Assembly (NCBI RefSeq): GCF_003018255.1
Contig: NZ_CP027440.1
Strand: one strand, 5' to 3'
Length of the DNA: 64,000 nucleotides
Source of the DNA: Escherichia coli
GTDB taxonomy: Bacteria; Pseudomonadota; Gammaproteobacteria; Enterobacterales; Enterobacteriaceae
Made by a program: the position numbers. Positions 43,801-46,800 of this stretch are shown here, one piece after another; the stretch's first letter is position 1; each line of letters opens with the position of its first letter.

Positions 43801-46800
43801 TCTGATTGGCCGTAGTGGGGCTGCCGTCAGGACGAAAGCGCGGGAACTGGGTATCTGCATGATGTTACGGGGTGATTATCACCAGTCAGCCAAATGTTCA
43901 CAGCGTGATATTGAGCTGGCGCGGCAATTGCATCAGCGTGGCGTACCCCGACGGGAAATTGCCGAAAAGTTTGGGATGAAGTTGGGCGCAGTGAATAACT
44001 ACGTTTATTTCGACAGGAGGGTTCAGGCGTGAGGGTGAGAATTTATATCGCCGGTCCGATGACGGGATATGAAAATTTCAACCGTGAGGCGTTTCACAAG
44101 GCGGAAGAAGCACTGAAACAGGAAGGGCATACCGTATTAAATCCCGCAGTACTTCCGGACGGGCTGACTCAGCCACATTACATGGATATTTGCATGGCAA
44201 TGATTCGTTGTGTGGATGCGGTTTATATGCTGGAAGGCTGGCAGCGGTCGGCAGGCGCTAAGGCAGAGCTGGCACTGGCGGAGAAACTGGGGCATGCAGT
44301 TATTTTCCAGGAGGCAACCAGTGAGCGAAATTAATTACCAGGAACTACGGCAGGTGAAAGAGAAAGCATAATCCAGAACTGAATAATTAAAATCAGCACT
44401 GTAAATAAAATTTAATCCTTAACCGGAGGGATTCCTGCACCCTCAGAACATCAGGAGACCGCCCGGCAGGGCGGTAGTGAAATGCGAAAGTTCAAAATAA
44501 TTATTGAAACGGGAATCGCCGGTGGAGATTCCGAGGATGAATTCGAAGTGAATGATGATGCGACGCCTGATGAAATTCATAACGAAGCAAAAGAAATTTT
44601 CTTTAACTACTGCAATTACTCATATCACGAAATAAAAGACGAAGAGGAAGAACAAAATGGCTGATTTTGGTTCAACTAAATACAACGTCAGTTTTGAAGA
44701 ATGGCATGAACTGTTAATGGACTATGCAGAGTTACGTGGTGGAAGTGCCGCCGATGCTGAAGCATGGCGTGATGACTATGAAGCAGGAAAAACTCCGGTC
44801 GAAGCATATTGTGATGAGTGGGGCTATGAATGAGCGAGATTAATTATCAGGAAGGGCATGAAACGGCAGGGCAGGCAAAACCAGTGGCATGGCGATATCG
44901 CTACGTGAAGAAAGACGTTACAGACTTTCAGGGGAAGCTGTGGGTTGGTGACTGGAAATATGTACCGACAAAAGAGGATTGCAACGACAGACCGAACTAT
45001 GAAATTCAGGCCTTATTCATCGGCCCGCCAGTCCCGGTGACATCAGAAGGACTGGTTAAAGCTGTGCGCTTTTATGAACAGGTAAAGCGTGAGAATCCGC
45101 CAGTCGAAACAGGAGCATGGAAGGATGCTGTTGACTGGGTGCTCAGAGAGGCCTGCTGTGCTGCCATTCTGGGTAAAGCCGACAATCCACCAGCATCCGG
45201 CAATCAGGTTAGCGAATTAGCAATGTGGGTTAAACGGCTGGTCAGCCAACTGAAAAAAGCGAAGCCGGACTGCAAATTACCGGATAAGGCGATGGACTAC
45301 CTGAAGCGAAACGGACTGATAAACGAGGAGAATATTTTACGATGACCTGGCCTGAAGCGTTCATAACGGTAGGAATTGCAATGGCGGTGGCGCTGGTGGT
45401 GTATTCGATTTGCCGCTGGGGATAAAAACGGTTTGCGGGGAAAGAAGAGTTAAGTAGAATTGCTGCGGGTGCTTGAGGCTGTCTGCCTCGGGCATGCCGA
45501 CGTAAGGCAGACAGAGAAAAGCCCCAGTTAACATTATGCGTCTTGCAGGACGCTTAACATTAATCTGAGGCCATATCTATGACTTGCACACTTAGATTAG
45601 CCTCTTATGCGCCGAAAGGCAAGGAGCAGCAGGCTATGAAGCAGCAAAAGGCGATGCTAATCGCCCTGATCGTCATCTGTATTACCGTCGTTGTAACGGT
45701 ACTGGTAACGAGGAAAGACCTCTGCGAGGTACGAATCCGAACCGGCCAGACGGAGGTCGCTGTCTTCACAGCTTACGAATCTGAGAAGTAAGAGACCCGG
45801 CGAGGGAGAAATCCCTCGCCACCTCTGATGTGTCAGGCATCCTCAACGCACCCGCACTTAACCCGCTTCTGCGGGTTTTGTTTTTTCCTGGCATTCTGGT
45901 TTACAATTCGCACGCCGGCCTGAACAACTGGCACCTGCTGTGTCACCGGAGAACCCGATGGCGCAACGTATAAAATCCCACAATTCTGAAGCCGTCCCGG
46001 CCATTAAGCGGGGGCGGCATTCGCACGTATTTAAAACCGACTGGTACCAGCATCCCCCATGCACTGAAGAACAGGCCGAATGGCTGATTCAGTGTTACCG
46101 CAGGCGCGGATACGAGGTTAAGAAAGCCATCAGCCTCGATTATCGTCACTGGATAATCTCTGTCAGGCTCCCTTATTCCGAACATCCACCGCGTCCGTCC
46201 CGCACATTCCAGCAACGTATCTGGAGGTAACGTGCGGGTATTACTTCGACCTGTTCTGGTGCCGGAACTTGGCCTGGTGGTCCTTAAGCCTGGACGCGAA
46301 TCACGGCCTGTTTTTCATTGCGGCAGGGTGCTGGTGGAGCCGGAACCGAAAAACATGCGCGGTCTGCCGTCCGGAGTCGTTCCTGCCGTTCGCCAGCCGC
46401 TGGCAGAGGATAAAACATTACTGCCATTTTTCAGCGATGAGCGGGTTATTCGTGCAGCAGGTGGTGCAGGTGCACTGTCTGACTGGTTATTACGTCACGT
46501 GAAATCCTGCCAGTGGCCACACGGCGATTATCATCACAGCGAAACAGTCATTCACCGTTACGGTACCGGCGCGATGGTGTTGTGCTGGCACTGTGACAAC
46601 CAGCTGCGCGACCAGACATCAGAATCACTCGATCAACTTGCTCAGCAGAATCTGGTTGCCTGGATGATTGATGTCATCCGTCACGCAATAAGCGGTACGC
46701 AGGAGAGGGAGTTATCGCTGGCCGAATTATCCTGGTGGGCGGCCTGCAATCAGGTGGTGGATGCACTACCTGAGGCAGTAGCGCGTCGTTCGCTGGGATT

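Follow-up and report, generated by a model that had tools for sequence, protein, structure and literature searches.

The window analysed here, a 64-kb stretch of Escherichia coli DNA, contains a short gene for a toxin of the Hok/Gef family in the early region of a Stx2 prophage. This raises the question of whether the gene belongs to a complete type I toxin-antitoxin locus or is what is left of one, and of what such a locus might do for the phage. An earlier note on this DNA had described a hok/mok/sok-like locus, and the toxin family, the leader model, mok, the fold-back pairing, the antisense gene and the genomic context all agree with that description. Judging from these sequence features, we consider it very probable (about 90%) that 45467-45886 on the plus strand is a complete hok/mok/sok-type locus. 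At the sequence level it includes a Hok/Gef toxin, the leader RNA, mok with its Shine-Dalgarno (SD) sequence, the tac/fbi and ucb pairings, a metastable hairpin and Sok. A search of the whole window found no second hok copy.

The hok toxin gene (MKQQKAMLIALIVICITVVVTVLVTRKDLCEVRIRTGQTEVAVFTAYESEK; 45636-45791, plus strand) encodes 51 aa, as had been noted previously, and is preceded by an SD sequence, AAGGAG, at 45621-45626. The product matched Pfam PF01848 (HOK_GEF) with an E value of 4.8e-23 over 42 of 42 model positions (1-42) and PHROG 251, 'MokW-like host killing', with an E value of 2.6e-32. The identical locus is labelled in RefSeq as encoding a Hok/Gef family protein (WP_000813246.1), and the assignment is also consistent with the identity to HokD described below. 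The NCBIfam Hok/HokA models gave an E value of 8e-14, with sub-threshold scores of 51.2 (cut-off 73) and 39.1 (cut-off 89), and an NCBIfam search of the ORFs neighbouring hok returned no matches.

A covariance-model search of Rfam, which the earlier note had suggested, was run, and the leader matched RF01794 ("sok") at 113.3 bits, well above the gathering score of 59 (E 5e-25), over the full length of the model (positions 1-157). The match lies on the hok-sense strand and extends from the tac sequence (45467) to the hok AUG, so that in practice the model describes the leader of the hok mRNA, to the middle of which Sok is complementary. A full-length match is therefore common ground with the family described in Rfam as 'sok antitoxin (CssrC)', but the strand differs from that of the Sok RNA proper, and an annotation that took the match at face value would place 'sok' on the wrong strand.

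From the start of the Rfam match, the position of the terminator and the fold, the full-length hok mRNA is predicted to be about 420 nt long, running from tac to the T-run of the terminator (45467-45886, plus strand). Its MFE was -173.5 kcal/mol (z = -7.96 versus shuffles). In both the MFE and the centroid structure of this RNA, tac (translational activator element, GGGUGCUUGAGG, 45467-45478) pairs with fbi (fold-back inhibitory element, CCUCAACGCACCC, 45841-45853) over 12 bp with one bulge. The ucb or anti-SD box (AAGCCCCAG, 45519-45527) pairs in both structures with CUGAGGC at the mok SD, which is thereby sequestered. The tac/fbi pairing, missed by the earlier note, is the true long-range fold-back of this mRNA and the one by which hok mRNAs are defined. 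The note had instead reported a long-range 5' hairpin with the arms ctgtctgcc (45479-45487) and ggcagacag (45506-45514). Those arms are present, and the stable hairpin that they form (CUGUCUGCC ... GGCAGACAG, 45479-45514) is paired in every fold, but with a loop of 18 nt it is local, not long-range.

Shorter versions of the transcript folded differently. In a 34-nt nascent fragment, tac pairs with the adjacent sequence at 45485-45498 in a metastable hairpin (-21.2 kcal/mol, z -4.36). In 5' fragments of 64-146 nt an open fold was found, with tac paired to ucb (U4 bulged) and the mok SD paired to a dcb-like box, GCCUC (45600-45604), which was located in the fold of the 146-nt fragment and is named by analogy with R1 (PMC9841398). 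The pairing of ucb with the mok SD, or with tac in 5' fragments, is the scheme described for R1 (PMC9841398). When the mRNA was truncated at its 3' end to 45467-45842 (376 nt), with the aim of obtaining the open form, tac was paired in the MFE structure with other 3' sequence and not with ucb.

The 3' hairpins and T-run reported previously were located at 45799-45820 and 45860-45877. By comparison with R1 (PMC9841398), the first of these, in the 3' UTR (ggcgagggagaaatccctcgcc / GGCGAGGGAGAAAUCCCUCGCC), probably protects the 3' end of the mRNA after processing. The second (aacccgcttctgcgggtt) has a 7-bp stem and, with the T-run, makes up the intrinsic terminator of the hok mRNA (45860-45886). 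It was the sole terminator-like site found in a scan of 45300-46000.

The upstream overlapping frame proposed in the earlier note was recovered as a mok ORF of 70 codons (45579-45791, plus strand) in the same frame as hok, with an SD sequence, GAGG, 8 nt 5' of its ATG (45567-45570). Both the mok SD (TGAGGC) and the mok ATG were conserved in all 57 relatives compared, and the ORF invariably reached or overran the hok start. The frame of mok relative to hok varied among them; it was in frame in 41, in the +1 frame in 12, and in the remaining four mok was 19 codons long. This combination of a constant ATG and a variable frame points to translational coupling of hok to mok, as a putative reading, and not to a conserved Mok protein. 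The two ORFs share a frame here, whereas in R1 they do not.

A Sok-like RNA had been expected on the minus strand near the mok start, and homology and folding together now predict a gene there, running from 45587 to 45517. The predicted Sok RNA, of approximately 71 nt, consists of a single-stranded 5' tail, one long hairpin and a U-run (-28.7 kcal/mol, z -5.96). Alignment places it at the position of sokW in 933W (L001, 2937-3007), which is annotated and has been probed experimentally, and the loop (45580-45592) of the hairpin at the mok start is complementary to its 5' tail. A putative sok promoter (45594-45622, minus strand), identified by homology, lies inside mok and has a -35 box, TTGCCT (reverse complement of 45617-45622), a 17-nt spacer and a -10 box, TAATCT (reverse complement of 45594-45599). 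The 17-nt spacer was found in 57 of 57 relatives, with TAACCT or TAATCT as the -10 box and TTGCCT or TTGACC(T) as the -35 box. Mutation of this -10 position in the 'pro-less' version of hokW (primer YO-421) abolished antitoxin activity (PMC8621323). On the plus strand, a putative hok promoter (45433-45460) has a -35 box, TTGCGG (45433-45438), a 16-nt spacer and a -10 box, TAGAAT (45455-45460), that lies 6 nt before the mRNA start and inside the minimal cassette, the homology with relatives beginning at about 45420. A consensus promoter scan of 45300-46000 found no sigma-70-like sites above threshold on either strand. Both promoters are sub-threshold in that scan, and they are therefore assigned by homology only.

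The weak match of both promoters to the consensus and the NCBIfam scores below the curated cut-offs would fit a relic that has decayed and lost its function, as most hok copies on the chromosomes of laboratory E. coli have. Pedersen and Gerdes are said to have reported in 1999 that many of the chromosomal hok loci of K-12 are inactive, and truncated relatives without tac, ucb, mok or sok were found here (K-12 hokD, L011, L055 and L068). One of these is hokD (relF, in the Qin cryptic prophage), whose protein is 90% identical to the Hok examined here. Homology begins at the hok SD, and from there to the terminator, fbi included, the nucleotide identity is 95%. In K-12 the whole leader (tac, ucb, the mok start and sok) is lost and hokD directly follows relE, whereas the copy in the window is complete. 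In the genome closest to the window relBE is found in the immunity region, and no matching ORFs were found at the corresponding window coordinates.

Several observations argue against decay of the copy in the window. All of the elements are intact and the ORFs open, and the 420-nt locus was found with 100% identity in at least eight independent complete RefSeq E. coli genomes, annotated there as "Hok/Gef family protein". Across 60 relatives the full-length structure was 92.1% paired, and 22 pairs had changed on both sides, compared with 10.3±2.2 in shuffles and 9-16 in slid controls. Such compensatory changes in the stems argue for ongoing selection on the RNA structure. Six pairs changed on both sides were in the Sok hairpin region (helix 5) and four in the 3' UTR hairpin at 45799-45820 (helix 18), which was 99% paired. 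In the 5' hairpin (helix 2), which was 100% paired, one pair showed a compensatory change from G-C to A-U in 24 sequences. The tac/fbi helix (helix 1) was 98.7% paired and nearly invariant, with tac identical in 56 of 57 relatives. Since tac, fbi and ucb are all near-invariant in the 60-sequence set, the pairing is conserved and covariation is uninformative there. Finally, hokW-sokW, which is 89% identical, is functional despite promoters that look equally weak (PMC8621323). We therefore regard a relic as highly improbable, and retain a complete locus as the preferred reading.

Related copies are widespread, and were found in 4715 of 5426 complete E. coli genomes (87%). When plasmids were searched with the toxin using tblastn, only HokD-like copies were recovered (86-92% identity), mostly in non-mobilizable plasmids of approximately 80-130 kb.

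The studied homologue is hokW-sokW of 933W/Sp5 (VT2-Sakai), annotated in 933W as mokW, hokW and sokW. The 89% nucleotide identity extends across the cassette (45342-45863 in the window), and the two loci share the 51-aa toxin, the 70-codon in-frame mok, identical tac and fbi, the position of Sok, the -35/spacer/-10 layout and a 27-codon ORF upstream, as well as a Stx2-converting lambdoid prophage as host. They differ in the sok -10 box (TAACCT in hokW, TAATCT in the present copy) and in the sequence 3' of fbi, where 933W has unrelated sequence in place of the intrinsic terminator that this copy, K-12 hokD and most relatives retain. They also differ in location; hokW adjoins attR, beyond the tail genes, and shares its strand with the int/xis operon, whereas the locus examined here belongs to the nin region and has the orientation of P, Q and stx. 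Experiments with hokW-sokW have demonstrated toxicity, antitoxicity that depends on the Sok promoter, and dependence on RNase III and Hfq (PMC8621323).

Compared with R1 hok/sok as described elsewhere (PMC9841398), the locus has the same tac/fbi lock, the same ucb/SD-mok pairing and metastable 5' hairpin, in 5' fragments the same open form with tac/ucb and SD-mok/dcb pairing, and putatively mok-coupled translation of hok. The predicted design of Sok is also the same, with a 5' tail, a single hairpin and a promoter inside mok, and both loci fall in one Rfam family. The R1 toxin is much more distant, HokW being 44% identical to it (PMC8621323), and R1 hok/sok is carried by a plasmid replicon and has a role in post-segregational killing, whereas the locus here is in a prophage.

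The genomic context was examined using the annotation of the closest genome, which is 99.7% identical over 5 kb. The order there is P – DUF1627 – ... – Hok/Gef – hypothetical – DUF968 – RusA – antiterminator – tRNA x3 – Stx2A/B. The locus therefore lies between P and DUF968-RusA-Q, in the orientation of the pR operon and with the tRNAs and stx2AB downstream of it, and its placement in the nin region, as proposed earlier, holds. A position between the replication genes and Q, on the pR-operon strand, is that of a lambdoid nin-region moron. In viral loci the downstream genes were on the strand of hok in 62 of 62 and 46 of 46 cases, the latter for the 46 carriers of DUF968. The order in K-12, namely hokD, a small ORF (rem), DUF968 (ydfU) and Q (ydfT), resembles that found here, but the Qin annotation has no rusA between ydfU and ydfT, whereas RusA is present between DUF968 and Q here. 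The ORF 3' of hok (45958-46227) was considered as a counterpart of K-12 Rem and rejected, as there was no similarity; it belongs to PHROG 1212, for which PHROG assigns no function. The hok cassette is approximately 5 kb upstream of stx2AB and in the same early/late direction of transcription.

The cassette is intact but ordinary. The finding of the earlier note is correct but already known, in that the family, the subfamily, the studied homologue, the nin placement and the exact sequence are all in public records. The RNA elements now have coordinates, as does the predicted Sok gene, which is absent from the RefSeq annotation.

The steps by which the locus would act are drawn from homology to R1 hok/sok and hokW-sokW, apart from those for which a fold or alignment was computed. 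A weak constitutive promoter would produce the stable hok mRNA. During transcription, the metastable 5' hairpin would hold tac, and in the finished mRNA the tac/fbi pairing, with ucb over the mok ribosome-binding site, would permit neither translation nor Sok binding. Slow trimming from the 3' end would remove fbi, allowing tac to move to ucb, whereupon the SD and start of mok would become accessible in the loop of a hairpin. The short-lived Sok would bind this exposed loop by its 5' tail, and RNase III would cut the duplex. If the level of Sok dropped, mok would be translated and, because translation of hok is putatively coupled to that of mok, the 51-aa Hok would be made and would damage the inner membrane.

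As for its role, assistance with lysis on SOS/RecA-dependent induction, by analogy with hokW-sokW, is better supported than addiction or abortive infection. Treatment with mitomycin C leads to loss of the sokW RNA, and HokW production is RecA-dependent (PMC8621323). Deletion of hokW-sokW from Sp5 left uninduced cells unaffected, but in induced cells growth arrest was delayed and phage release halved (PMC8621323). In the prophage examined here, Sok would similarly vanish on induction and Hok would be made ahead of the holin and endolysin, bringing forward growth arrest, lysis and phage release. The effect could reach the release of Stx2, although this is a guess, and a candidate for a lysis-advancing toxin upstream of stx2AB is relevant to the timing of that release. 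As side roles, the locus may also stabilise the prophage by post-segregational killing or exclude other phages. The lysis-assisting role comes from the copy that adjoins attR in Sp5, not from one in the nin region, and its transfer to this locus may fail.

It is also conceivable, though rather unlikely, that the locus is functional but serves mainly, as the earlier note had suggested, for prophage addiction, through the killing of cells that lose the prophage, or for abortive infection directed against other phages. Pecota and Wood reportedly observed in 1996 that R1 hok/sok excludes T4, which was counted for abortive infection. R1 hok/sok is classically known for post-segregational killing (PMC9841398, PMC8621323). 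Such a role needs a stable mRNA and an unstable antisense RNA, the architecture found here. However, an integrated prophage is rarely lost through missegregation, and in Sp5 lysogens the deletion mattered on induction only (PMC8621323). In addition, the locus invariably has the same direction as the early rightward operon that contains it, beside DUF968 and Q, and this constancy fits a tie to the lytic programme of the phage itself, as lysis assistance would involve.

A more speculative proposal, which we think doubtful, is that the position and orientation of the cassette are the trigger, with read-through on induction running head-on into the sok promoter and silencing sok. Both known placements put the cassette, in sense orientation, behind an early operon that is antiterminated by N, the present copy being under pR and the 933W/Sp5 copy downstream of pL-int after the genome circularises. 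If this is true, it would explain the RecA-dependent disappearance of the sokW RNA, and read-through would also give hok transcripts lengthened at the 5' end, where tac would have lost its terminal position. Membrane damage by Hok, and perhaps the release of Stx2, would then be timed to the early lytic programme.

The ORF of 27 codons immediately upstream (45342-45425), which encodes a predicted membrane peptide, travels with the cassette and is present upstream of hokW too. It could be a further, undescribed component.

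The earlier note proposed a hok/mok/sok-like locus in the nin region, and this was borne out by a match to Pfam HOK_GEF, a match to Rfam RF01794, a tac/fbi fold and the order of genes from P to Stx2. The hok ORF of 51 codons (45636–45791, plus strand) and the overlapping mok ORF of 70 codons, which starts upstream in the same frame and runs into hok (45579–45791, plus strand), were both present as described. The Hok peptide covers the entire HOK_GEF model (E 4.8e-23), matches PHROG 251 'MokW-like host killing' (E 2.6e-32) and is 90% identical to HokD of K-12; matches to the NCBIfam Hok models scored under the curated cut-offs. 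We put the probability that this is a hok/sok locus at about 0.9, most likely with the standard mechanism, and the finding is one that is already known. The locus occurs once in the 64 kb window. At least eight complete E. coli genomes carry the 420 nt of the locus at 100% identity, each time annotated 'Hok/Gef family protein', and related copies were found in 4715 of 5426 complete genomes, in up to nine places per genome.

The prophage of E. coli 00-3076 (and those of related STEC strains) is 99.7% identical to the window over 5 kb, and its annotated order is replication protein P, DUF1627, several small genes, the Hok/Gef family protein, a hypothetical protein, DUF968, RusA, an antitermination protein, a methyltransferase, three tRNAs and Stx2A/Stx2B. 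Together with the position of stx2A (50501–51460) and stx2B (51472–51741, plus strand) in the window, this places the locus in the nin region, with the orientation of the pR operon. Such a placement is usual for the cassette: among 80 viral contigs with a close Hok, the small ORF that lies downstream in the window followed in the same orientation in all 62 contigs carrying it, as did DUF968 in 46 of 46. The window DUF968 protein (46232–47281, plus strand) is a full-length match to PHROG 96 'HNH endonuclease' (E 1.4e-173). The order hok, small ORF, DUF968 is also that of most viral loci and of Qin in K-12 (hokD – rem – ydfU (DUF968) – ydfT (Q)), where the small ORF, rem, is unrelated to that of the window. 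Immediately before stx2A the window has three tRNA genes (50159–50407, plus strand), which the matching genome annotates as Ile, Arg and Arg; Stx2 phages usually have this arrangement. Rfam STnc100 (RF02076) is matched over its full length, with 158 bits, at 51816–52031 (plus strand), 75 nt downstream of stx2B; STnc100 has been related to prophage PasD sRNAs in a 2026 preprint (10.64898/2026.05.13.724894).

A covariance-model search of the whole window, the check suggested in the earlier note, gave a full-length match to RF01794 'sok' at 45467–45641 (plus strand), with 113.3 bits where the gathering score is 59. The match begins with GGGUGCUUGAGG and reaches the hok AUG on the hok-sense strand, so the model captures the leader of the hok mRNA, with Sok itself complementary to the middle of the model. 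Taken straight from RF01794, an annotation of Sok would have the wrong strand and about twice the right length. The minus-strand RNA expected near the mok start could instead be placed by pairwise alignment with the annotated sokW of phage 933W (L001, 2937–3007), which predicts Sok at 45587→45517 (minus strand). Its predicted fold (−28.7 kcal/mol, z −5.96) consists of a 5′ tail of about 9 unpaired nt, a single long hairpin and a U-run. The putative sok promoter, assigned from sequence and homology, comprises a −35 box TTGCCT (reverse complement of 45617–45622) and, after a 17 nt spacer, a −10 box TAATCT (reverse complement of 45594–45599). All 57 relatives with a leader share the 17 nt spacer, with TTGCCT/TTGACC(T) and TAACCT/TAATCT as hexamers. 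This −10 box is exactly the site replaced by the 'pro-less' mutation (primer YO-421, PMC8621323), with which sokW function was lost. The hok promoter is probably TTGCGG (45433–45438) with TAGAAT (45455–45460) on the plus strand; in a generic consensus scan neither promoter passed.

The full-length mRNA (45467–45886) folds at −173.5 kcal/mol (z −7.96), with tac (GGGUGCUUGAGG, 45467–45478, the extreme 5′ end) paired with fbi (CCUCAACGCACCC, 45841–45853) and ucb (AAGCCCCAG, 45519–45527) paired with CUGAGGC over the mok Shine-Dalgarno GAGG (45567–45570), all on the plus strand. These pairings match the closed, untranslatable form known from R1 hok mRNA (PMC9841398). The earlier note had read the arms ctgtctgcc (45479–45487, plus strand) and ggcagacag (45506–45514, plus strand) as a long-range hairpin; the arms are there, but the hairpin is local and the true fold-back is tac/fbi. 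Both 3′ hairpins that it listed were found on the plus strand, ggcgagggagaaatccctcgcc at 45799–45820 and aacccgcttctgcgggtt at 45860–45877, the latter followed by a T-run and the sole terminator-like site reported between 45300 and 46000. A nascent fragment of 34 nt forms a hairpin sequestering tac, the metastable structure (−21.2 kcal/mol), and 5′ fragments of 64–146 nt form a tac/ucb stem enclosing the stable 5′ hairpin. At 146 nt the mok Shine-Dalgarno pairs with a dcb-like GCCUC (45600–45604, plus strand) and the mok start is exposed in a hairpin loop, to which the predicted Sok 5′ tail is complementary; in the R1 scheme this corresponds to the open form. The open form was absent from the minimum free energy structure of the 376 nt 3′-truncated mRNA, so refolding is only partly supported by the modelling.

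Across 60 distinct relatives (79–100% identical), 92.1% of the full-length structure was paired, a figure somewhat biased to the window, from which the structure was derived. Both sides had changed in 22 pairs, compared with 10.3±2.2 in shuffles and 9–16 in slid controls, and these compensatory changes sit in the 5′ hairpin, the Sok-hairpin region and the 3′ UTR hairpin. Since tac, fbi and ucb are almost invariant, their pairing is conserved but uninformed by covariation. The mok ATG is present in 57 of 57 relatives with a leader while its frame relative to hok varies (loci L003–L082 in the alignment of relatives, A2; window equivalent 45579–45636): in frame in 41 (69–70 codons), in the +1 frame in 12 (68 codons), and a 19-codon mok ending close to the hok start in four. 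Such a pattern is expected where translation of mok serves to deliver ribosomes to hok, with no need for the Mok protein itself. The +1 shift is caused by a one-base insertion, GGCAAGG to GGTCAAGG, which also turns the sok −35 box into TTGACC.

A 461 nt region matches 102 phage records, including that of 933W, in which mokW, hokW and a 71 nt sokW antisense RNA are annotated; that locus is 89–90% identical to the window. The shared cassette (45342–45863) opens with the ATG of a hydrophobic ORF of 27 codons and extends to just beyond fbi. In 933W it adjoins attR and is oriented like int and xis, whereas the window copy lies in the nin region and is oriented like the pR operon. The hokW-sokW locus of Sp5 was studied by Takada et al. 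2021 (PMC8621323): HokW causes growth arrest, sokW expressed from its own promoter counters it, and RNase III and Hfq contribute. After mitomycin C, sokW RNA is lost while hokW mRNA remains; HokW reaches the inner membrane about 1 h ahead of endolysin, dependent on RecA, and when hokW-sokW is deleted growth arrest comes later and phage release is halved (PMC8621323). By analogy with hokW-sokW, the best-supported role in the window prophage is likely assistance of lysis on induction; addiction or phage exclusion, the role proposed in the earlier note, is possible. In both known placements the cassette is sense-oriented downstream of an antiterminated early operon, so read-through on induction could silence the convergent sok promoter, a step beyond the literature that we consider rather unlikely.

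The hokD locus of K-12 is 95% identical in its hok Shine-Dalgarno, hok, fbi and terminator, all of which it retains, but, unlike the window copy, it has lost the entire leader and directly follows relE. Leaderless copies comprise hokD (L083, 5020–5420, minus strand) and three viral loci (L011, L055 and L068); all keep the hok Shine-Dalgarno, hok, the 3′ hairpin, fbi and the terminator, with tac, ucb, mok and sok replaced by unrelated sequence, and fbi is kept despite loss of its tac partner.

The 27-codon ORF (MTWPEAFITVGIAMAVALVVYSICRWG, 45342–45425, plus strand), at whose ATG homology to the 933W cassette precisely begins, overlaps the stop of an upstream 171-aa ORF (ATGA). It had no PHROG match and no RefSeq annotation. 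It may encode a small membrane peptide travelling with hok/sok, or may merely be conserved upstream DNA; its reading frame is intact in all 21 full-length homologues, where 48 of the codon differences are synonymous and 39 non-synonymous.
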